A stretch of DNA of 56,310 bases from a virus: positions 200,745-257,054 of the IMG/VR virus record IMGVR_UViG_3300024983_000001; one strand, written 5' to 3'. This document shows positions 24,963-35,771 of this stretch, piece after piece. The notes below the pieces were generated by a model that was not told the origin of the DNA, made no database searches, and was given only the letters and a program-made list of their open reading frames with translations. Numbering within the stretch: the first letter of the stretch is position 1; each line of letters starts with the position of its first letter. The translations under genes and the position numbers were made by a program.

Positions 24963-25853
24963 TTATGCGAGCGGAACGAGGTTAATGATACCACCAAGAG
25001 TGAAGGTTAAATCAGCTAAAGTAGCATCCGGTACTGCTGGAGCAACGATAGATATCTTGTCGTTGATAGTGCAATTAGCATAACCAGTGAAGTACCCAAC
25101 GGTGCTGCCCGGATCAAAAGTAATTGTACCAAATTCGCCGTTGTTTTGTTGTACACTGAATATAGTTGTTGCGGTTGCTGCAACTTCTGCAATTGCAGCG
25201 GAACCATCGACTGAAAAATCGAATATGCTATTGCGCCCAATCACAAAACGACACAATTCCGCAGAGGAGGCAGGAACACCCGTTGTAGCAGCAAACAAAT
25301 CATACAATTCGTCTTGTATCGGTGGTGTAGGTAACAATGGGGTCCAAGCGCCGCCAGTCCAGTAGTTAAATTGGGGGATGGAAGTATCAAACCACACTTG
25401 GCCGATTGTGGGAACATCTGGTGGGGTTGCACTCGCAAAGTGCTCCATGATATGAATCATGTTTTCTAGCAGATTTTCGCCATAGTTTAGTGTCCCTTTG
25501 CCGTTGAGTGCCAATGATGTATTTTGGTGCGTTTGGCCAGGTCCATTAACAGTTTCGGGTTGGATAAAAAACGGTGCAATTGCTGTATCAGTAAAATTAA
25601 TTTCGTATATAGCAGATACCAAATCGGTAGCTGTGAACGCCAATGACATTGTTTCGTTGAGGACAATATCCGTGTTTGGACCATTAACTGTGGACGAAAC
25701 TACAGTCCACAACCCATCCTGTGCAATTGAAGGTACTGCTACGTTGCCATTATACAGCAAGAATTTAATTCCTGTGTATAAAGGTGTTGTATAATCACCA
25801 AGAACCGATATCGTATTCGAGGGGATATTAATCGAAATTATGTTAAGCTTCAT
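24963..25853 (-). CDS. virion structural protein (fibre/baseplate-like)
   Basis: TSLALNGKG..NYGE..LEN..H..EHFA...PTIGQVWFD domain shared with neighbours. Confidence 0.7.
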   Translation of the reverse strand: MKLNIISINIPSNTISVLGDYTTPLYTGIKFLLYNGNVAVPSIAQDGLWTVVSSTVNGPNTDIVLNETMSLAFTATDLVSAIYEINFTDTAIAPFFIQPETVNGPGQTHQNTSLALNGKGTLNYGENLLENMIHIMEHFASATPPDVPTIGQVWFDTSIPQFNYWTGGAWTPLLPTPPIQDELYDLFAATTGVPASSAELCRFVIGRNSIFDFSVDGSAAIAEVAATATTIFSVQQNNGEFGTITFDPGSTVGYFTGYANCTINDKISIVAPAVPDATLADLTFTLGGIINLVPLA

Positions 25854-25856
25854 TGG

Positions 25857-27545
25857 TTAACTCCCAACCACTAAAAGTTCTATCTTTGCCCCTGCCGTTG
25901 GAATGTTGTTGGCAGTAAATGTAATTTGTGTTGCACTGTCTTCCGTGTAGTCCTCGGCCGCACCTTCCATATTTTTTAGACCATTAACAAAAACCCATAG
26001 CCTATTGGTGCCAACTGGATACGACATCGGGATTGTTGACAGATCATATATTGCCGCACCTGTTGCCGTTATTAGAGCACGTGTTACAGCGGTTTTATTG
26101 TCCACATACTGTTTGGTAGCAGCTTGCAACGCAGTTGTTGGGTCTGAGTCAAGTGTTAATGTACCGCCAGTTAAAACAGTCACGTTGCCTGTAAATTCGG
26201 CATTGTCTTTATCAGCTTTGTGTAGATCAATTGCAGTGATTGCTTCTTGAACAGGAATATCGGTACTTTGCCCATACAAATCCGTGAGCATGGTTGTGTT
26301 GGGGGCAGCAAGAGTGGTGTAAATTACGTCCGAAGCAATGTGCTGGTGCGTAAATGGTGCAATACCAGTGATGTTGATGATACCACCTACGGTAGTGTGC
26401 AACGCTAATACACCAGTCGAAGCATTCAATAAGCCCGAATCAACAACACCATCTGCACCAGCAGCGATCAATAGGTTATCTACGTATTGTTTTGTAACAG
26501 CATCCAACGGACTAACAGGATTGCCCGATAACGTTAAGATGCCCAGCATTGTATCACCGGCGCGAGACACTTTATTAGGAATTTCTGCGGCAGCAACTTG
26601 CAACGCATCAAGTTGTGTTTGAATCGCACTTGTTACACCAACAAGATAATTAACTTCTGTTGAAGTCAGAGCTGGATCTAAACCATCTAACAATGTAGAC
26701 TGTGCAGCAGTTACGTGGACTGTTGTATCTGTGGCGTGAGCGGCTAAGGTGTTATCGGAATATTGTTTAGTAACGGCGCCAAGTGATGCAACAGGATCAG
26801 CACTCAATATCAACAAACCTGTCATTGTATCACCAGTAATACTCACAGATGTGTTGTCAACATATTGTTTGGTGGCTGCTTCGAGTGCTGTTGTTGGATC
26901 TGCTTCTAATACAAGAGGTCCTGTTAAAGTGCCGCCTGACAACGGTAAATAACCATCGGTAACTTTAATCCAATCAAGGGCGACGATATTACCGTCAAAA
27001 GTGCCAACGGGTACGGTTTCGCTTGTAGGAATATTAATGGCTGTTTCTCCAGCTGCCACAACCTGCACACTCTGAATGTGATAAACTTTGTTATTGCCGG
27101 TTGAGTTTGTTACAGCAAACGAATCAATGTTTAACAAGTAATTGTAAGCATCGTTTGTGAGAGTATCTTGTATAAAAAAGCGTTTTAATAACTGATCACC
27201 ACCAATAATGTTATACGTGTTGGTTGTTTTAAACACTCGCATTTCATTCACTGAAGTATCAAACCATGTTTGACCAATAGTTGGATTAACAGGTGATACG
27301 GGGCCCGCAAAGTTTTCTAACAAATACAGAATATTATTTTGAAAACGCTCACCATAATTTGGAACACCCTTTCCGTATATCAACAGGGCGGTGCTTGAAT
27401 TTATCGAGTTGTACTGACCACCATTGAGAGCAGGATTTGTAGGAATGGCAGGACCATCAGTGTGGTACGACTGAACAACAATCGTTTCCTTACCAGGAAC
27501 GACTGTTGAATCGGATGCAAATGTTAAATTATATGTCGTGCTCAT
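25857..27545 (-). CDS. tail fibre-like structural protein
   Basis: Shared N-terminal GKG..NYGE..LENFA..GQ.WFD domain; four DP..AL.AATKQYVD repeats; HQH motif. Confidence 0.75.
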   Translation of the reverse strand: MSTTYNLTFASDSTVVPGKETIVVQSYHTDGPAIPTNPALNGGQYNSINSSTALLIYGKGVPNYGERFQNNILYLLENFAGPVSPVNPTIGQTWFDTSVNEMRVFKTTNTYNIIGGDQLLKRFFIQDTLTNDAYNYLLNIDSFAVTNSTGNNKVYHIQSVQVVAAGETAINIPTSETVPVGTFDGNIVALDWIKVTDGYLPLSGGTLTGPLVLEADPTTALEAATKQYVDNTSVSITGDTMTGLLILSADPVASLGAVTKQYSDNTLAAHATDTTVHVTAAQSTLLDGLDPALTSTEVNYLVGVTSAIQTQLDALQVAAAEIPNKVSRAGDTMLGILTLSGNPVSPLDAVTKQYVDNLLIAAGADGVVDSGLLNASTGVLALHTTVGGIINITGIAPFTHQHIASDVIYTTLAAPNTTMLTDLYGQSTDIPVQEAITAIDLHKADKDNAEFTGNVTVLTGGTLTLDSDPTTALQAATKQYVDNKTAVTRALITATGAAIYDLSTIPMSYPVGTNRLWVFVNGLKNMEGAAEDYTEDSATQITFTANNIPTAGAKIELLVVGS

Positions 27546-27559
27546 CTAAAGTGGTTCCT

Positions 27560-28786
27560 TTAACTATAAACAGCTGGGAAGATTTGTCTCCAGGCGCCTG
27601 CTGCATACATTGATATCACTGGGCCAGCTGCAACTTTAATGTCACCATCTTTAGGTGTAGTTGGGTTGATTACAGGTAATGTTGCGCCCGCGCCTCCAAC
27701 TGCAGTACTGATAGCATCATCAACATACTTTTTGTTAGGCACGTGATTATTAGCCGTAACTAACGTTTCGTAGTTGGCAGTTGTTAGTGTAGCAACACCT
27801 GTTGTATCAACTGTGAACAATGTAGTTGCGGCTGATGTTTCGCCACCTTTGTGAACGGCAAATACTGCTGTACCGGTATTGGTGCTGTCAATGTTGAAGT
27901 GTAAGTTGGTTTCAGCAGCAACCAACCCCTCGGCCAACATTTTGATGTCGGGTACAACAGCAGCGTCATTGGCAAATACGAGCGGCCCGATGTTGGTGTC
28001 CCCGGATTTTGTAATCTTATTAGCGAGAGAATTGTCAACGTAATTCTTGTTCGCGGCGTCCGTTAGGTTGATGGGGTCGGGTAAATTTGTGAGAGTGTAC
28101 AAATTGTTCATGTTGAGGTTGCCACTCATAGGAGCAGTACCCGAACTCAAAATTAACGCGACCCACTGAGTGCCATCCCACATAAACAGCTGACTTGTGG
28201 TGGTGTCATACCACAGCTGGCCAAGATAAGGAGTTGTTGGGTTTGGTGTATATGTCATACTACCACCAATGGTTTGTGTAGTAACCGGCTCATTTACTAC
28301 TACCGTGGTTTCGTTTGCGCCAGAGTTGTATGCGGTTGTGGCTACCGTGTAGACACCATCATTAACACCGCCAGGTGTGCCAGAGACGGCAAATTGAGTA
28401 CCATTAGCAAGAGTTGCTGTTTGATTACCGCTGATTACAAACGATTGACTAACACCATTTGCTGATAAAACAGAAAAGGTGAAAACAGAAAGTCCACTTG
28501 TTGTAACCCATTGGTTATCCTTGTTAAGAACCTTTAATGCGTTTTCGCCGTAGTCAAACCACAACTGGCCAATAGTTCGCACGCTTGCAGAAGGCGGATT
28601 TGGGCTAGCAAAATTCTCCAACATGTGTAGGAGGTTTTCGTTGATGTTTTCGCCGTAGGTAAGCAGTCCTTGACCGCAAAGGTTGATGGAAGTATGTGTG
28701 TTATCAACTTGTCCTGGCAACACAACAATGGGTGTTTTGCCGGTGTTGATTTCATCGGTATAATTAATAACGTATGTAGTAGCCAT
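27560..28786 (-). CDS. tail fibre/baseplate-like structural protein
   Basis: Same N-terminal domain; GQLWYD repeats; DAANKNYVD and NKKYVD motifs. Confidence 0.75.
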   Translation of the reverse strand: MATTYVINYTDEINTGKTPIVVLPGQVDNTHTSINLCGQGLLTYGENINENLLHMLENFASPNPPSASVRTIGQLWFDYGENALKVLNKDNQWVTTSGLSVFTFSVLSANGVSQSFVISGNQTATLANGTQFAVSGTPGGVNDGVYTVATTAYNSGANETTVVVNEPVTTQTIGGSMTYTPNPTTPYLGQLWYDTTTSQLFMWDGTQWVALILSSGTAPMSGNLNMNNLYTLTNLPDPINLTDAANKNYVDNSLANKITKSGDTNIGPLVFANDAAVVPDIKMLAEGLVAAETNLHFNIDSTNTGTAVFAVHKGGETSAATTLFTVDTTGVATLTTANYETLVTANNHVPNKKYVDDAISTAVGGAGATLPVINPTTPKDGDIKVAAGPVISMYAAGAWRQIFPAVYS

Positions 28787-28854: not shown

Positions 28855-30144
28855 TTAACTGGGGGTAACAGTCACAGGGGTGATTTCACTATCAAACAAT
28901 AGTTTAAATGCTGCGTTTTGTATAGCAGTGTAATGTAGATATTCGATGGTGTGATTAATACGGAAAACATCAATACCCAAATCTAAAGGACAACTGCTCT
29001 TACACATACGTAATACTCTGCAATCCCCACAGTGCCACTCACGAGACAAATCAACATGTTTAATTTTTATGCCCTTTATGTCTATCAAATTACCACTAAT
29101 GTATGATTCATCCACATTTTGACAAGTTCTTGCATTTCCATATATGTCCAACGATAACAATCGTTTGTCGTCCACACCACAATTGGTTTTGATAATGTGA
29201 GGTGTTTCTGATTGTAATGATTTTGCGTAAGGTAATACACCCATACCAGTATGGAATAAACTATTGGCCAATAATGGACCTGTTTTTGTTGCACCATATA
29301 CACGAAGTTGCTTTAAATGTTCGTTTAAATATCTATTCAATACAGCCGAGTACATTGCCAAATCTTCGCCTGATATAACATGATGTGATGAGTTTTGGGC
29401 GAGCGTCTTATCGTAAACACGTCCTAATTCATAACTCAATGTTACGGGTTGCAGTCCTGTCTTTGTGAAGTAGTCTTGAAAAAAATCATTAATTTTGAAC
29501 AAATCGTAATTTGTTTTACTAATTACAGGATTGAAACTAAACTGCATTTTGGGAAAGTTTTCCTGAATGCCTTTGAGAACCTCAACTTTTTTGTGAAGGA
29601 ATTCTTTACCACGTAATGACTCATGTCCCGGCCCATCATGACTAATACCAAACGCAACTCTGCCTTTAATTTGTTTGAAATATTCGACGTGTTTGGGCAT
29701 TAATGTTGTTCCGTTGGTTGGAATATACCACACGATTTGTTCATTATCGAATGCTTCAATAATTTGCATGATGTCGGGCCAATATAACAACGTTTCACCA
29801 CCCCACAATTCAATACGATTCGTTTTTGACATATCGAGGTGTCGTTTCATATTTTTGATTAGCATTGGTGTAGAACCTTGTGCGGGTCGTTCGTTTGGGT
29901 TACCGATGTCTTTCTGCATACAATAACCACAACTATAATTGCAACCATGCCCTAGGGTGATTTTGATGGTGTACGGATCTTTGGCAACAGACGTTGAACC
30001 AAAATCCTCAATCATTTGTCCTGTTTCGGCGTTAGCCTCGTATAACTTGCTTAATTTGTTGAGGTTATTATCCAACAACGAATTTGTTTCGTTGTTGTAG
30101 TGAAAAAACTCACCTGTACGTTCAATTTTAAATTTGTGTATCAT
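28855..30144 (-). CDS. radical SAM/SPASM maturase
   Basis: CNYSCGYC, WGGET, PTNGT, ISHDGP; C-terminal CGV..D..GN..TC..CGDC..LRMCKSSCP. Confidence 0.9.
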   Translation of the reverse strand: MIHKFKIERTGEFFHYNNETNSLLDNNLNKLSKLYEANAETGQMIEDFGSTSVAKDPYTIKITLGHGCNYSCGYCMQKDIGNPNERPAQGSTPMLIKNMKRHLDMSKTNRIELWGGETLLYWPDIMQIIEAFDNEQIVWYIPTNGTTLMPKHVEYFKQIKGRVAFGISHDGPGHESLRGKEFLHKKVEVLKGIQENFPKMQFSFNPVISKTNYDLFKINDFFQDYFTKTGLQPVTLSYELGRVYDKTLAQNSSHHVISGEDLAMYSAVLNRYLNEHLKQLRVYGATKTGPLLANSLFHTGMGVLPYAKSLQSETPHIIKTNCGVDDKRLLSLDIYGNARTCQNVDESYISGNLIDIKGIKIKHVDLSREWHCGDCRVLRMCKSSCPLDLGIDVFRINHTIEYLHYTAIQNAAFKLLFDSEITPVTVTPS

Positions 30145-31315
30145 TTTTAGTCTTTATTATCGTATCTTTAATTGTTATAAGTGGTATAACATCGCCATTA
30201 TTTTTTGTCGGTAAGAACAATCCAAATTTGTGGTCTATCCATCCCTGTTGCACAAAAGCATTGTATAATGAAGTCCACGGTTTCAGTAAAATTATTGGAA
30301 TAAAGTTAAAGTTCTTGTTGATTTCTACACTAGAAGCGACATAAGAAAAATAATTAAAATACTTATTATCATCACGATTTCGAATTTTCGATATGTATTG
30401 TTTATACATATCAACTTTTGTTAACAGGGAGTTATATACTAACCGTTCCACATTATCAGCTCCATCAGTAACAATATCATAAAATGGTCGTGAATTAATT
30501 GCAATGGCCTGTGATATCGTATGAAATACAGAGGTGTACTGTAAATGGACAACCTCGCCTAATATTTGATAAGCGTCTGAGTCTTCTGAGTAGTAAGTAA
30601 ATTGTTGATAGTCAGCCTGTTCCAATTTCCACTTGTTATTACGGTCTTGGGTAATGTCATCATGAATACAAACGTGTATGTTGTGACTGTGTGCCCAATC
30701 AATCAATTTAATTACAGCATCCTGTTTTTCACCATCATCAGTGCAAAAAATTATTTTTAATTTTAATAATGGCGTCTTGGAGTGCATAATTTCTAATTTA
30801 GCAACCAGATCGTCGGCAAGCTGGCCACTTTTCTTAGCCAAAAAGATATCACTGAACGATATTTCATATATCGATGAAAAATTCATTTCGTTCATAATGA
30901 TGTCATATTGTTGCAAAAATGCATTATCAGTCATCGCTGTTGAACAGAAGTGGTGGCTATTACGTTTATAAAAATCAAATAAATGTGGATGTTTGCGTTT
31001 TAACCAGAATAAATCATCCATCGTAGATACAATAGTGAAATGTTTGAAGAACTTTAAGATCTGTTCTTCTGTTTCGGGTGGAATGAATGGTGGGACCATC
31101 ACACCAAATTCTTCGTCAGTTGGCCAGTCCTTTTGGACGTAACACATCTTACAACCAGCTTTACACATGTATCGTTTTGTAGTTGAAAACACGAGTTCAT
31201 TAGTTACGTTACGTAATGCATCGTACCCCAAAAAGTGATCTTTAAAAAAGTCGGGATCTTCGGGTAAATCGGGTGTATCGTGTTCTGTATATTCGTTAAT
31301 CATATTCCAATCCAA
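30128..31315 (-). CDS. divergent radical SAM-like protein
   Basis: CKAGCKMC (CxxxCxxC) near the N-terminus, MTDN, EISFSD; no clear GGEP or SPASM motif. Confidence 0.6.
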   Translation of the reverse strand: MDWNMINEYTEHDTPDLPEDPDFFKDHFLGYDALRNVTNELVFSTTKRYMCKAGCKMCYVQKDWPTDEEFGVMVPPFIPPETEEQILKFFKHFTIVSTMDDLFWLKRKHPHLFDFYKRNSHHFCSTAMTDNAFLQQYDIIMNEMNFSSIYEISFSDIFLAKKSGQLADDLVAKLEIMHSKTPLLKLKIIFCTDDGEKQDAVIKLIDWAHSHNIHVCIHDDITQDRNNKWKLEQADYQQFTYYSEDSDAYQILGEVVHLQYTSVFHTISQAIAINSRPFYDIVTDGADNVERLVYNSLLTKVDMYKQYISKIRNRDDNKYFNYFSYVASSVEINKNFNFIPIILLKPWTSLYNAFVQQGWIDHKFGLFLPTKNNGDVIPLITIKDTIIKTKNDTQI

Positions 31316-32388
31316 TGCATTAAAGTTGGTTTCTGCCTCAACTTTTGCGAGTGCTTGATAGCTATATTTAACATTTGATAAAATGTTCTACAGTTACCCT
31401 GTGGTGTTTTTTCAAATTCTTTATACAAAAACTTTAAACCGCATTGGTCACGGGACTCACAATCAACACATATCAGTGGGATAAGTGGCGTTTCTTGGTC
31501 AGGATTATCACGTACAAGCTTGATTGGGATAATTGTTTGTTTTTTCCAGGTACCAACAACTGTATCATACATCTTGTATTCAAGAAAATCGTATTCAGGA
31601 TAGATATAACCATCCGGTGATAGAATTATTTGTTTGTGATTTTCAAAATAATGTTTGTCAAAGTCGTGCTCTTGTCCATCGATCAGTACCGTCATACCCA
31701 TTACATACAACATTTCAATAAATTTTGTGAAAGCATTGAAGAAAGCTTTGAGATCTATTTCATCAACAATTACGCGAAATTTGTCCTTGCCGCGGATATG
31801 ACGGAGAGGAATGATATTAATTCTTTTGATGTTATTTTTGGCGCAAACGTCTGTGATACTTTTAATAGTATCTAGGCTGAAAGCGTTTCGTTTGTGAATA
31901 GGCACCACGAACTGAAACTGAATGTTGTTTACCCCAGCAGACTGAAGAGCTTGTATCGTGGCTGCGATATCAAATTCCGTTCTATTTTCGCCCTGAAACA
32001 GAAAATCATAACTAATACTAACAAATAATCGCTCTTTCCATTTTTTCAAAAACCACTCATTTCCAACAATAAGACTTCCATTCGTTTGTATATAAAACGG
32101 AAAATTACTATCGGGAAACATTTCATCTATTTTATCCAAAATGTTATCCATCAGCTGCACATAAACAAAAGGTTCACCGCCGTGAAAATTTAGCATACTA
32201 AGAGGGTAATTGCCGTCGTCAGTCTTCATCAAGCTGATGAAGTTGATAATATCTTCGATATCATCGGTGTGCATTCGTTGTCCACCGATTGTGTCTTTAA
32301 TATAATCACGATCACAATAAGAACACTCGAAGTTACAAACGTTACCCAAGTAGATACTTAGGTACTTTGCGCCAGTTGTGGTAATCAT
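31300..32388 (-). CDS. radical SAM protein with partial SPASM domain
   Basis: CNFECSYC, FHGGEPF, IQTNGS, SISYD; C-terminal CVDC..RDQC..C. Confidence 0.9.
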   Translation of the reverse strand: MITTTGAKYLSIYLGNVCNFECSYCDRDYIKDTIGGQRMHTDDIEDIINFISLMKTDDGNYPLSMLNFHGGEPFVYVQLMDNILDKIDEMFPDSNFPFYIQTNGSLIVGNEWFLKKWKERLFVSISYDFLFQGENRTEFDIAATIQALQSAGVNNIQFQFVVPIHKRNAFSLDTIKSITDVCAKNNIKRINIIPLRHIRGKDKFRVIVDEIDLKAFFNAFTKFIEMLYVMGMTVLIDGQEHDFDKHYFENHKQIILSPDGYIYPEYDFLEYKMYDTVVGTWKKQTIIPIKLVRDNPDQETPLIPLICVDCESRDQCGLKFLYKEFEKTPQGNCRTFYQMLNIAIKHSQKLRQKPTLMHWIGI

Positions 32389-34085
32389 AGTTGAACCAGT
32401 TTCTTTGTTTTTTGTAATATATCGCCCTTCATGTTTAAAATAATCATGTGCGCAAGGGCAAAGTAAAATGCGCTTCTCTCAACTGTTAATGTGTCTGTAT
32501 CTTGTACAGATGAATCGGATGGTATATTGTTGTGGTTGAGCAATTGGACATAAAAATCACGAATAGATAATTCAGGGCCTGTTATTGTAGGCATGTAGTT
32601 GCAGGCACACGGTAGCTGCACTGTGCCTTGTTTAATAAGGGACATAAAGTGACCTAATATGATTTCATGTTTTGGAAAATTGATAAGATCGGCATCAATT
32701 TCACCAACAGCCAAGTGGTGGCCAGTAATTTTTTTATACATTAAATGCGTGGCCATTTTTCTATACAATAGTTCGGGGTCCATTGTCTGTGCCGCTGAAA
32801 CAATATCCATGTATTTTTCTTTAAACACCTTTTTTGAGTTATCGTTCTGTAAATCTATAAACAATGTCACGATTTGTTGACACATACTATCGGGTCTAAA
32901 CATTTGTTTGTGCCCGGTGCTTAGATTTCCAGCAGGACATTGATAACAGAATCCTTTAAGGTTGCATGTCTTGCATTGTTCTTCCTCTTCGAACATCTTG
33001 TCGTACGTAGCCTGAAATGTTTCGTAGCGATCGGTATACAAATTATCATTCAATATGTTACCCAATACAGTTTGTTTTAATGCACTCTTTTGATTGGTGA
33101 AGAAATAACACCCTGCAAAATCGCCAGAAGCATCAACAGCTATCATGTCAGAACCGACCATACAATTGCTGTTTTTCTTGGTCCCCACTCCTTCAGAAAA
33201 TTGAATATCAAATCCAGGCATTTCTGTAATGAGCCACAAAATGGTTGCATGTAATGCGTCCCATTCTACGGCCGTCCACTTGATGTTACCTGTACCAGCA
33301 CTCATTGTAAGAGGGTGAATAACCATTACACGTAAACCTTGATCATAAAGTCTTGTTGCAAAGTCTTTTAGATATGGTGCCGTTTCGCGTGATATGGTGC
33401 ACCGCACACTAATCATCTTGCTGTTTTTGTGGAAGGAAGGAATTTTACCAACACACGAAATAATATGGTCAATGTCATCTTGTGTTACTTCACGGTGGTC
33501 AACATCTTTGTTGTCTGTATCTAAGCTGATGGACATGTTCACGAAATCGTTTGCAAAGTATTCGGCAATAAAGTCGTCAGTCAGTAATGTGCCGTTAGTA
33601 ATCATACTAATTCGTACCGATTGAGATTTTTCTTGTATTTCTTCCTTGTGGGTTTTAATAAAGTCGGTAATCAACCCTTTGTGGATGAGAGGTTCCCCGC
33701 CAAAAAATTGAAACAACTTGCCGTCCATATCGTTTGCGTTGTACAGAAAATCGTACATTTTCTTTAGGGAATCAACTGTAAATCGACCATAATCGGTATT
33801 GTGTTGCTCGTAGCAGTACGAACATGCTAGGTTACATGCGTTGGTGAGAATGATGTTGAGGTGTTTTAAGTCTTCGAAACGTTCTTTGTGGGCGGCAATT
33901 GATTCCACTGTTTCTGCATCACTCGGTAGTACCGAAATGAGTTTATTTTTCTTGGTGCCTTTAGAGGTTTCGTGAAAAGTGGTGACGACCTGCATGCCGT
34001 CTGGGGTATTCACAATTGGTTCGAGTTTGAGTTTTGCAAATTGCTCGCGGCTAACGAATTTTATAGTACTAACTGATTCGGACAT
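32385..34085 (-). CDS. radical SAM/SPASM maturase with C-terminal extension
   Basis: CNLACSYC, FFGGEPL, ITNGTLL, SISLD; full SPASM CMVG..GDFAGC..CKTC..FCYQCP..C. Confidence 0.92.
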   Translation of the reverse strand: MSESVSTIKFVSREQFAKLKLEPIVNTPDGMQVVTTFHETSKGTKKNKLISVLPSDAETVESIAAHKERFEDLKHLNIILTNACNLACSYCYEQHNTDYGRFTVDSLKKMYDFLYNANDMDGKLFQFFGGEPLIHKGLITDFIKTHKEEIQEKSQSVRISMITNGTLLTDDFIAEYFANDFVNMSISLDTDNKDVDHREVTQDDIDHIISCVGKIPSFHKNSKMISVRCTISRETAPYLKDFATRLYDQGLRVMVIHPLTMSAGTGNIKWTAVEWDALHATILWLITEMPGFDIQFSEGVGTKKNSNCMVGSDMIAVDASGDFAGCYFFTNQKSALKQTVLGNILNDNLYTDRYETFQATYDKMFEEEEQCKTCNLKGFCYQCPAGNLSTGHKQMFRPDSMCQQIVTLFIDLQNDNSKKVFKEKYMDIVSAAQTMDPELLYRKMATHLMYKKITGHHLAVGEIDADLINFPKHEIILGHFMSLIKQGTVQLPCACNYMPTITGPELSIRDFYVQLLNHNNIPSDSSVQDTDTLTVERSAFYFALAHMIILNMKGDILQKTKKLVQL

Positions 34086-34133: not shown

Positions 34134-35096
34134 TTAAGCTATTTTAAAGACTGAATAACAGTACTCCAATGATTCTGTTGTTGTGACCACATCCAGAAAT
34201 AATCCTGCTGGTATATTCACCTTCAAGTATCCTACTGTGGTGTTATCGTCAAATGTAGCAGTAATGTGTCCACCAGAAAGCGAATTAACCCAAAGGTTTG
34301 ATTGTACGTTGGCCATAATAGCGGAGGTGTCAACGTGGCTACATTTTAAAAGATTTATTGGACTATCAAACAAATCCAACGTAAATGATGACCCTTTAAC
34401 ATAAATGGCATTGTTGGGTAAAGAAACAACATTTGAGGAGAATTTGGGTGTGATGATGTTGTCTTTGATATTGCCGTCGTGGTCTGTAATCAACCTAACC
34501 TCAAAATTATCGTTCGATACATCCAACCCCCCACCAATTTTCAACAGTCTTGAGTCTGTAATTAAATAATAAACGGGCAAATTTTTGAGTTTTGCAAATC
34601 CGAAAAAAGCCACTGTTGGTATGAAGGATGGGTGGTTAGAGGTAAGTTCCTCCTTAGTGGCGGCGTTTATAAAAGTGTTTGATGTTCTATCCTTAACAAT
34701 AGTAATTGCTTTTACTAAGGCATCGTTATCTGATGCATCGTTGGCTAGTGGCACACCATAGACGAGCTCGCCATATGTGTCAGCATACGAGCACAGTGCA
34801 TCAAAATCAAGTGGACTAAAAAACGATGGATTGGTATTGGGTTGAAACATGTTGTTTGCGTAGTGTGATATTGCTACACAGTCGGCCATGGCCGACGATT
34901 GGTTGTTACGGACCAATCTAAATGTGTTATCAGCTTTGTTGAAAAAACCAAGATTTATATCAGTTGGTTTAGCTAATTCGTCAAGTCGTTGGAGCGAGTG
35001 TTGTGGTTGTTCAAAATCGTTGTTGATAAATTCACAAAAGTCAGCGAATAAATTGGGGTTATAGTTACCCTCTTTTATAAAAATAACTCGTTTCAT
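34134..35096 (-). CDS. hypothetical protein of the radical SAM operon
   Basis: 320-aa ORF between the Cys-rich peptide and the first radical SAM gene. Confidence 0.75.
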   Translation of the reverse strand: MKRVIFIKEGNYNPNLFADFCEFINNDFEQPQHSLQRLDELAKPTDINLGFFNKADNTFRLVRNNQSSAMADCVAISHYANNMFQPNTNPSFFSPLDFDALCSYADTYGELVYGVPLANDASDNDALVKAITIVKDRTSNTFINAATKEELTSNHPSFIPTVAFFGFAKLKNLPVYYLITDSRLLKIGGGLDVSNDNFEVRLITDHDGNIKDNIITPKFSSNVVSLPNNAIYVKGSSFTLDLFDSPINLLKCSHVDTSAIMANVQSNLWVNSLSGGHITATFDDNTTVGYLKVNIPAGLFLDVVTTTESLEYCYSVFKIA

Positions 35097-35111: not shown

Positions 35112-35324
35112 TTATAAAATGCCTCTGCCACAAGCACAGTTACAGTTACAGTTACATGCGGTGTTGTAATCATCATAGAAAATATGAGTGTGATTGACCA
35201 ACTCATCCAAAATGTTTAACATTTGCTGGTATGTGGTGGTATCAACAGCAGCACCCTGTGCAACAGCTGGTGCATCGGGTTGCACAGCTGTTACTGTGCT
35301 CAAGTCTTCGGTAGTAGTTGCCAT
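35112..35324 (-). CDS. Cys-rich putative precursor/substrate peptide (…HTH…TACNCNCNCACGRGIL)
   Basis: 70-aa ORF with AGGA RBS; five Cys in alternating CxCxCxCxC at the C-terminus; upstream of four radical SAM genes. Confidence 0.8.
   Translation of the reverse strand: MATTTEDLSTVTAVQPDAPAVAQGAAVDTTTYQQMLNILDELVNHTHIFYDDYNTACNCNCNCACGRGIL
35139..35156 (-). repeat. (TGTAAC)3 in-frame hexamer repeat encoding Cys-Asn x3
   Basis: GTTACA x3 on the plus strand. Confidence 0.85.
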
Positions 35325-35345
35325 ATTAAGTTCCTGTTATTAAAA

Positions 35346-35723
35346 TTAGGATATCACATCATTGATAGAGTGTGTGTGAACTCTAATACTATTTATTGCC
35401 GTAATTAATGCATTAACATCTGCTGCTGTTACAGCATCACCAGTGATTTTTGATAATGCCGTCGGTGTTTTTGCAGATACAACAGCCGAATTAGTAACGG
35501 TTTGTGTTATGCCACTGTACAAACCAAACCCCACAAACGAATAGTCAGCGGTACTGTGATAGTGCACAATCCAATCGTTATAAAGAGTTGCAAAATTATT
35601 AAAATCGTCTTTGCTTATTGGCAACCCAGCCGCGATAGCAGTCCGCATGTTGCTGATAGTAGTCGTCATAGCGGATGGATTGTATCCAATTGGACCGGAT
35701 GTTGTTTGTGTTGTTTGAGCCAT
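35346..35723 (-). CDS. small protein with two helix-HxH modules (putative virion component)
   Basis: GGAG RBS before ATG 35723; GLPI..FN..WIVHYH and GDAV..VN..IRVHTH repeats. Confidence 0.72.
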   Translation of the reverse strand: MAQTTQTTSGPIGYNPSAMTTTISNMRTAIAAGLPISKDDFNNFATLYNDWIVHYHSTADYSFVGFGLYSGITQTVTNSAVVSAKTPTALSKITGDAVTAADVNALITAINSIRVHTHSINDVIS

Positions 35724-35763: not shown

Positions 35764-35771
35764 TATTTATA
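35764..35771 (-). promoter_or_regulatory. T4-type late promoter heading the peptide/radical SAM operon
   Basis: TATTTATA on plus = TATAAATA on minus, about 40 nt upstream of ATG 35723. Confidence 0.65.

Follow-up and report, generated by a model that had tools for sequence, protein, structure and literature searches.

Cages in which metal is bound by HxH motifs have been documented at the apex of P2 gpV, in the T4 gp37 needle, in T4 gp12 and in the fibre shaft of R-type pyocins, the metal being Fe2+, or Zn2+ in gp12. All of the documented HxH cages are homotrimers with beta structure, and the role proposed for them is to keep three chains in register; the account of P2 gpV, T4 gp37 and T4 gp12 in the initial annotation of the locus described here holds in the literature. 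Other systems bring a radical SAM/SPASM enzyme together with a Cys-rich substrate. The ranthipeptides (PapB/PapA, which makes freyrasin, and SCIFF/CteB) are one such group; the SPASM enzyme QhpD of the quinohemoprotein amine dehydrogenase system installs thioethers in a small Cys-rich protein, QhpC, which is kept as a protein; and NxxcB makes Cys-Asn beta-thioethers at NxxC motifs. NxxcB has been named as a radical SAM family (PMC11851443), and the SPASM enzyme CrpC of Methanococcus voltae puts thioethers into a Cys-rich protein, CrpA, that stays a protein (PMC13692751).

On the minus strand of the window considered here (the whole stretch of DNA that was analysed, 56,310 nucleotides of a virus record of 257,054 bases), the genes for a 242-aa protein, p125, p70, p320, p566, p362, p395, p429, p408, p562 and p296 follow one another in the order of transcription (Table 1). 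A literature search found no published description of this phage p125/p70/radical SAM system. The cluster p125-p70-p320-p566-p362-p395-p429 recurs on 25 IMG/VR contigs and in the Ralstonia jumbo phages RP12 and RP31, of which ORF070 is 36.6% identical to p125 and in which a 65-aa p70 homologue is encoded that is absent from the record annotation. The match of p125 to its PHROG family is full-length, residues 1-122 falling on profile positions 1-122 of 125. BLAST finds p320 in synteny at 20 of the 25 IMG/VR loci, and in most relatives it adjoins p70 or lies within about 0.9 kb downstream; at four loci (L017, L019, L022, L024), where p320 is not matched, p70 and the p566 homologue are separated by a gap of corresponding size. 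No Pfam, NCBIfam or PHROG family was found for p320, for which the protein atlas gave weak tail-fibre leads and nothing more. The late-promoter-like TATAAATA upstream of p125 is not enriched in the window (8 matches versus 4.2 expected).

Table 1. Features of the p125-p70 locus and their coordinates in the window.
Feature	Position	Strand	Basis or remark
p125, two-module protein, 125 aa	35346..35723	(-)	phrog_31780, function unknown; E 2.7e-16
p125 N-terminal helix, residues 16-31	35631..35678	(-)	predicted from AlphaFold (pLDDT 87-90) and covariation
p125 module 1, residues 32-60; HYH 54-56, D60	35544..35630	(-)	profile/register comparison
p125 module 2, residues 94-122; HTH 116-118, D122	35358..35444	(-)	profile/register comparison
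p70, 70 aa: variable N-terminus, module 3 and Cys-Asn ladder tail	35112..35324	(-)	44 relatives
p70 module 3 ('leader'), residues 23-51; HTH 45-47, D51	35172..35258	(-)	hhalign, genome profile search, AlphaFold helix
Cys-Asn ladder CNCNCNCAC, p70 residues 57-65	35130..35156	(-)	presumed radical SAM target; C57, C59, C61, C63, C65 invariant
p320, conserved unknown protein	34134..35096	(-)	BLAST synteny
p566, radical SAM enzyme with SPASM domain; nearest relatives PapB-type ranthipeptide maturases	32385..34085	(-)	Pfam, NCBIfam
p362, radical SAM paralogue	31300..32388	(-)	Pfam Radical_SAM 1.2e-7; phrog_1802 3.4e-29
p395, conserved cluster member	30128..31315	(-)	phrog_36229; Pfam without radical SAM match
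p429, radical SAM enzyme	28855..30144	(-)	Pfam Radical_SAM 5.1e-11
Fibre-like genes p408, p562 and p296, directly downstream of the cluster, same orientation	24963..28786	(-)	PHROG tail-fibre and virion-structural matches
HQHIASD of p562, residues 400-406; fits HxHxxxD	26328-26348	(-)	sequence
TATAAATA, late-promoter-like, about 40 nt upstream of the p125 start	35764..35771	(-)	lead only

The initial annotation described one module occurring three times, twice in p125 and once in p70, and this description is confirmed: the reading frames lie where they had been placed and the quoted stretches are letter-exact, but a length of about 28 residues, from Gly to Asp, describes the module better than the 33 or so residues assigned to it. 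As single sequences, the modules resemble each other weakly (about 24-34% identity for module pairs, aligned by eye), and an HMM of the p70 module matches the p125 of the window with an E value of only 0.25 among 444 window ORFs. As judged from sequence profiles, the family-level likeness of the modules is well beyond chance. Module 1 of the p125 family matches module 2 with an hhalign probability of 97.3% (E 2.4e-11 over 33 columns), and the p70 family (44 sequences) matches the p125 family (17 sequences) with a probability of 93.7% (E 1.9e-7), residues 12-51 of p70 aligning with residues 83-122 of p125. Across the whole 257-kb record, the p125-family profile has two matches and no more: p125 itself (E 1.3e-40) and, through profile positions 77-126, the p70 ORF (E 0.0032). 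Chance similarity was rejected on these profile statistics, those of hhalign and those of the whole-record search. The likeness is also illustrated by a misplacement in which MAFFT put module 2, and even the N-terminal halves, of rows holding p125 alone onto the p70 module of a fused p125-p70 query, making those rows unusable.

With the first His numbered 0, the three module families have 11 positions of a register in common: G at -21, I/V at -18, a hydrophobic residue at -13, N/Q at -12, L/M at -10, N at -5, a hydrophobic residue at -3, H at 0 and +2, a hydrophobic residue at +4 and D at +6. The polar positions -12, -5 and +2 are one heptad apart, a spacing that would be expected of a layer of polar core residues in a helical bundle. 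No departure from HxHxxxD occurs in either module of the 17 aligned p125 sequences or among the 44 aligned p70 sequences, and the histidines H54/H56 and H116/H118 of p125 and H45/H47 of p70 are invariant in alignments of 17, 102 and 44 sequences. At 50% identity the p125 family has 271 representatives; of the 149 inspected, 134 carry two HxHxxx[DN] motifs, neither more nor fewer.

Wherever a p70 locus extends far enough upstream, L030 excepted, there is one p125-family gene, always with two modules (among the p70 loci of 25 IMG/VR loci, RP31 and about 10 metagenome loci); thus, the module count per cluster is always 2+1. Two natural proteins carry three modules in one chain, one found among the 149 p125-family representatives inspected and the other among four long p70-like matches, and neither was found in IMG/VR. 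In P0205 (230 aa; p125 HMM E 6.5e-10, p70 HMM E 1e-20) the three modules are followed by the Cys ladder, and in P0144 (332 aa) by another domain, the third module of P0144 being its best match to the p70-module HMM. The pairing of the two proteins that had been proposed from the sequence is supported by the strict linkage of their genes and by these three-module chains. Since the front half of p70 is a true third copy of the module, p125 and p70 most likely dock with each other to form a single unit of three modules.

Mean-field direct coupling analysis (DCA) of 153 p125-family sequences recovers a hairpin of the N-terminal helix with the module-1 helix (T22-N43, I30-F44 and M26-N43, at near-constant i+j), which is predicted to be antiparallel; the earlier two-module account of p125 is correct as to the modules but left this fourth helix (residues 16-31) uncounted. 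The analysis also recovers a hairpin after module 1 (Y55-T77, A59-T75) and couples the strand after module 2 to that hairpin at constant i+j (S79-S119, V76-I120, Q74-V123). Pairs between the module-1 helix and the module-2 helix occur only at separations of 55-60 residues, equivalent positions being 62 residues apart. The five strongest pairs of this band have a mean of 1.43 versus 0.91 +/- 0.09 (maximum 1.07) in a null model of 20 column shuffles, and four helix-to-helix pairs stand in the global top 30 versus a null mean of 0.85. Because only four DCA pairs, none of them between module helices, exceed the maximum of the shuffled alignments, and because a column-shuffle null ignores phylogeny, the covariation evidence is moderate. 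It favours an arrangement of modules 1 and 2 at the same level, parallel, in register and side by side, and the parallel in-register band fits a side-by-side bundle, not two cages in series along a fibre.

The genes for p125 and p70 are in the same frame, so a single read-through chain could be modelled (P0050, with the TAA codon read as Gly; a modelling device only). Its alignment comprised seven in-frame read-through rows, six of them pairs from other loci, and 30 p70 rows. AlphaFold2 modelled P0050 with a mean pLDDT of 71 and a pTM of 0.64, placing helices at residues 16-31, 38-51, 100-113 and 162-176 (pLDDT blocks of about 75-90), of which the last is the p70 module (pLDDT 83-85); strands were modelled even in the artificial 8-residue linker, and the unmodified ladder tail was unstructured (pLDDT about 30). 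The natural chain P0144 was modelled from 101 family sequences that cover only modules 1 and 2, and has the same set of helices, with a pLDDT of 67-78 for the third helix and a pTM of 0.49. In both models, all module helices are predicted to lie in one compact domain, and folding of one chain in itself forces intramolecular packing. For both models the same two entries lead the structural matches, each covering all four helices: a designed helical filament subunit (Z 6.9 for P0050 and 8.6 for P0144) and the Beclin-1/Vps30 BARA fold (Z 5.5 and 5.1 for the fusion; Z 7.0, rmsd 3.4 and 116 aligned residues for P0144). The BARA fold consists of three beta-alpha repeats around a pseudo-threefold axis. 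Z scores of 5-8.6 are at a level that is common for helical bundles according to the tool, and the matches bear on compact packing, not on ancestry. Foldseek found nothing in the PDB at E <= 0.001, and a search of BFVD found the RP12 homologue only; sequence searches of the PDB with the p125 profile, the p125-family protein P0179 and the p562 fibre found nothing real, the single match being a His-tag. With three helices in p125 itself, this protein may not need p70 to be complete.

Several members of the p125 family carry additional sequence. In P0179 the two modules are followed by a GP38 adhesin domain (Pfam, 32.5 bits versus a cut-off of 25); an extra stretch separates module 1 from module 2 in P0127 and P0175, and Pfam calls it a beta-propeller in P0127; the family member of locus L019 has a Gly-rich insert at the same place; and three members (L013, P0167, P0176) have an added Hint-like C-terminus. 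Such inserts between the modules could be knobs along a fibre if p125 and p70 were instead stacked homotrimers, with two cages in series in p125 and one in p70, forming an end-to-end mini-fibre that displays three ladders at its tip. An architecture of this kind would follow the documented HxH cages in being homotrimeric; P0205 and P0144 are no less compatible with a fibre in which three cages follow one another; single-chain AlphaFold modelling gives no discrimination; and ladder-ended proteins elsewhere (described below) match tail-fibre families, which to our knowledge are trimeric. Stacking is nevertheless unlikely, as modules at different levels of a fibre would be expected to show neither the parallel in-register covariation of their helices nor the covariation of the post-module-2 strand with the post-module-1 hairpin, both models form one compact domain, and the HxH-to-HxH spacing is never less than about 56 residues in the p125-family forms with listed motif positions.

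Docking of p125 with p70 would give the front half of p70 a lasting role. In the 44 relatives of p70 the C-terminal half is invariant and the extreme N-terminus is variable. The ladder holds three overlapping NxxC spacings (N58-C61, N60-C63, N62-C65). One relative, P0204, continues after the ladder with a Pro-rich linker and a 170-aa domain, and another, P0202, has an additional domain before the module; an intein suspected in the protein P0203 was not confirmed by Pfam. Folded domains in these two positions are a poor fit to a cleaved leader-core peptide, and the front half of p70 is probably not a throw-away leader. The earlier suggestion that the 'leader' may be a structural oligomerisation module is upheld insofar as it is a homologous third copy of a structural-looking module and not only a recognition tag.

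The enzyme p566 has Pfam matches to Radical_SAM (1.5e-17) and SPASM (2.7e-4). Its best NCBIfam match is rSAM_PapB (6.9e-39), yet the score of 134 bits compares with an equivalog cut-off of 340; the second is QhpD (2e-27), below its cut-off. The CrpC family TIGR04463 is matched as well (8.6e-14), and cyclophane-forming maturases, along with HxsB of the His-Xaa-Ser system, are matched more weakly (E 9.3e-20 to 5.7e-13). As in a ranthipeptide-type precursor locus, a radical SAM/SPASM maturase (p566) adjoins a Cys-rich C-terminal core (p70). The scan for protease and exporter families covered the genes from the 159-aa and 242-aa upstream genes to p566 (Pfam, NCBIfam and PHROGs) and those from p362 to a 163-aa gene (Pfam and PHROGs only), and found neither kind.

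With a leader-like and then a core-like part, and with several radical SAM genes beside it, one of them for a PapB/QhpD-like SPASM enzyme, p70 has the layout of a classical RiPP precursor. Its module would then be a leader recognised by the maturases, its ladder would be modified, cut off and released as a small natural product, and p125 would be a paralogous helper outside the virion, binding or mimicking the leader as a scaffold, chaperone or regulator. The leader helix region is conserved, as recognition sequences are, and neither protein was seen in RP31 virions, where a proteome of 32 proteins from excised gel bands, with a search database from which the p70-like peptide was absent, contained no ORF70 (the p125 homologue) and no fibre-like ORF68 or ORF69. 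A released peptide is a quite unlikely product, however: it is the extreme N-terminus that varies and the core that stays invariant; the cluster genes scanned offer no protease or exporter family; among the relatives are forms with a folded domain ahead of the module or behind the ladder, and one fusion to a p125-like part; fibre genes flank the cluster in several lineages; and the ladder also ends tail-fibre proteins of 200-620 aa that have no leader.

These fibres emerged from a survey of IMG/VR for DNA encoding CNCNCNC, in which ORFs of at least 100 aa ending in a ladder were collected. The 41 ladder-ending ORFs are on unrelated viral contigs, and 33 of them have a homologue of a radical SAM enzyme of the window within 6 kb (30 p429-like, E 1e-12 to 2e-32, and three p566-like), usually about 1 kb downstream on the same strand; the ladder ORFs that have no such homologue nearby are mostly near the end of the fetched stretch. 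PHROG tail-fibre families are matched by eight of the ten ladder-ending ORFs tested, down to E 2.5e-70. Thus, the ladder is a fibre-end element that travels with the p429-type enzyme, and p70 looks like a ladder-bearing fibre end of this kind that has parted from its fibre and acquired a docking module. In the window itself, p408, p562 and p296 match PHROG tail-fibre and virion-structural families. Homologues of p408, which have the C-terminal motif W-[RK]-Q-[IV]-[FY]-P-A-[IV]-Y in common, are directly upstream of p125 at four other loci (L012, L018, L031, L040), and RP31 ORF069, directly upstream of the p125 homologue, is tied to p408 solely by a looser version of that motif.

The fibre survey also bears on whether HxHxxxD is a substrate site of the radical-SAM-type enzymes, for example for a His-centred cross-link, and not a set of metal ligands. 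This is improbable: four enzymes are many for five cysteines, p566 has its weaker matches to cyclophane-forming maturases and HxsB, and the motif is invariant in all three copies, but the motifs lie inside confidently modelled folded segments (pLDDT blocks of 74-91 in the two models) and not in a free core after a leader, and the ladder-ended fibres with p429-like enzymes mostly have no HxH before the ladder, so the enzymes go with the ladder, not with the His motif. The alternatives to docking are not all exclusive of it, and modification of HxHxxxD is compatible with it.

The chance that p125 and p70 dock via their three modules, probably with a His6 metal site, and thereby anchor a cross-linked ladder in the fibre apparatus is judged to be about even. 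According to this model, each module would be an amphipathic helix with an in-phase polar core (Asn -12, Asn -5, His +2) that runs into a short strand. Modules 1 and 2 of p125 would pack side by side in parallel, together with the N-terminal helix, and the single module of p70 would dock as a third equivalent element; the three HxH would meet in a His6 cage like the Fe/Zn cages of homotrimeric fibres and spikes, but made from 2+1 non-identical copies. The 'leader' of p70 would be a permanent, uncleaved docking module anchoring the C-terminal ladder, p566, p362, p395 and p429 would most likely cross-link the ladder with thioethers, and the assembled p125-p70 unit would belong to the tail-fibre apparatus encoded around it. 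We infer the 2+1 stoichiometry, the metal site, the chemistry of the cross-links and the location in the virion. The arrangement in which a heteromeric pseudo-threefold His6 cage plants a single radical-SAM-cross-linked ladder on the tip of the tail fibre, with the 'leader' as its permanent docking element, is tentative, the balance being somewhat against it. The pseudo-trimer at a virion tip that the initial annotation envisaged is in part supported, because of the module homology, the gene linkage with the three-module chains, the models, the covariation in favour of side-by-side packing, and the fibre ladders. Its link to fibres is real, given the flanking fibre-like genes, the family members with Gp38, beta-propeller and Gly-rich parts, and the ladder-ended tail fibres elsewhere.

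If docking is correct, an apparent RiPP precursor would be a small virion-type protein with an assembly module as its front half, the radical SAM enzymes would harden or shape a fibre tip, and RiPP-type chemistry would be part of the host-recognition apparatus. The site would be the first of the His-cage type to be made from non-identical copies (2+1, or three in one chain), and it would show how a tip element present only once can be mounted on a fibre of threefold symmetry. The gene set is widespread in phages and its reading would change; for genome mining, phage calls of a precursor plus radical SAM enzymes may be structural proteins. The cultured Ralstonia phages RP12 and RP31 carry the cluster, and the idea can be tested in them.

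Of the known systems, the ranthipeptides (PapB/PapA and SCIFF/CteB) are similar in having a radical SAM/SPASM enzyme beside a Cys-rich C-terminal stretch. The phage locus differs from them in its PapB score far under the cut-off, its four radical-SAM-type genes, its invariant core, the lack of a protease or exporter among the cluster genes scanned, a 'leader' that is homologous to a neighbouring folded protein, and a ladder that also ends full-length tail fibres. Compared with the NxxC motifs of NxxcB, the ladder of p70 carries three such spacings that overlap. QhpD/QhpC and CrpC/CrpA belong to cells, in a setting that involves neither phage nor fibre nor His module, and the likeness of p566 to QhpD and CrpC is limited to the radical SAM/SPASM core. 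The Gp38 adhesin on the gp37 tip of T2/T6/S16-type phages (PF05268) is a small separate fibre-tip cap, and a GP38 domain is carried by P0179, but p125 and p70 themselves have none. The HxH cages consist of three identical chains in beta structure, whereas the copies here are non-identical and distributed 2+1 over two products (or in one chain in P0205 and P0144), the motif follows an alpha-helix and has an invariant Asp four residues past the second His, and the Pfam tail-fibre repeat PF03335 Phage_fiber is matched by p125 below the gathering score (13.6 bits versus a cut-off of 20, E 0.077, residues 111-120) and weakly by only four of 102 family members (best E 0.048). The p125-p70 unit is nonetheless like the HxH cages in that an invariant HxH ends a rod-like oligomerisation element, the proteins are encoded among tail-fibre genes, the role proposed is likewise to keep three elements in register, and there are three copies of the motif per unit.

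The 280-nt 'gap' between ORF070 (the p125 homologue) and ORF071 in the genome of Ralstonia phage RP31 contains a homologue of the Cys-ladder peptide, and phage RP12 is identical in this respect. This 65-aa peptide has no annotated ORF in the GenBank entries of either phage, and the RP31 peptide was therefore undetectable by published virion proteomics.

Some relatives of p70 (the 70-aa ladder peptide with module 3) and p125 (the 125-aa protein with modules 1 and 2) carry extra sequence. In P0203, a p70 relative of 206 aa, the Cys ladder is interrupted by an insert of approximately 140 residues that starts with Cys and has Asn, then Cys, at its end; removal of the insert would leave a tail resembling that of P0027, another p70 relative. 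The insert looks like a mini-intein, an assignment that a Pfam search of P0203 did not confirm. Three p125-family proteins (P0167, P0176 and that of locus L013) have an extra middle domain followed by a Hint-like C-terminal domain with weak Pfam matches to Hint and Hom_end_hint, and at L013 a separate p70 gene still adjoins the extended gene. A practical trap in building alignments of the p125/p70 family is that MAFFT (alignments A3 and A4, with a p125-p70 fusion as query) consistently placed module 2 of stand-alone p125 on the p70 module of the fusion rather than on the fusion's own module 2.

In the IMG/VR loci found by the CNCNCNC DNA pattern (L044-L163), a gap of approximately 0.8-1.5 kb usually separates the gene of the ladder-ended fibre from that of its radical SAM enzyme, which resembles p429. 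A helper gene in this gap could play the role of p320, the conserved protein downstream of p70; a BLAST comparison of p320 with these loci gave zero matches at E 1e-5.

Features of fibre-like proteins and of p125/p70 relatives
Feature	Position	Strand	Remarks
HQHIASD of p562 (562-aa fibre-like protein)	window 26328-26348	-	residues 400-406
p408-type fibre protein gene	window 27560-28786	-	homologues L012, L018, L031, L040; possibly RP31 ORF069
Cys-ladder peptide homologue, 65 aa	L001:6462-6659		Ralstonia phage RP31 (AP017925)
p125-family protein with added middle and Hint-like C-terminal domains	L013:6623-7981		

The single HQHIASD of p562 fits the HxHxxxD pattern of the three p125/p70 modules, is not preceded by a helix module, and may represent a homotrimeric His cage of the ordinary kind in the adjacent fibre. 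Genes of p408-type fibre proteins are often located immediately ahead of p125, and the extreme C-terminus of these proteins, in the window and at the four homologous L-loci tabulated, is conserved as W-[RK]-Q-[IV]-[FY]-P-A-[IV]-Y. This motif may be a docking site for the p125/p70 unit. ORF069 of RP31 ends in a looser form of the same motif.
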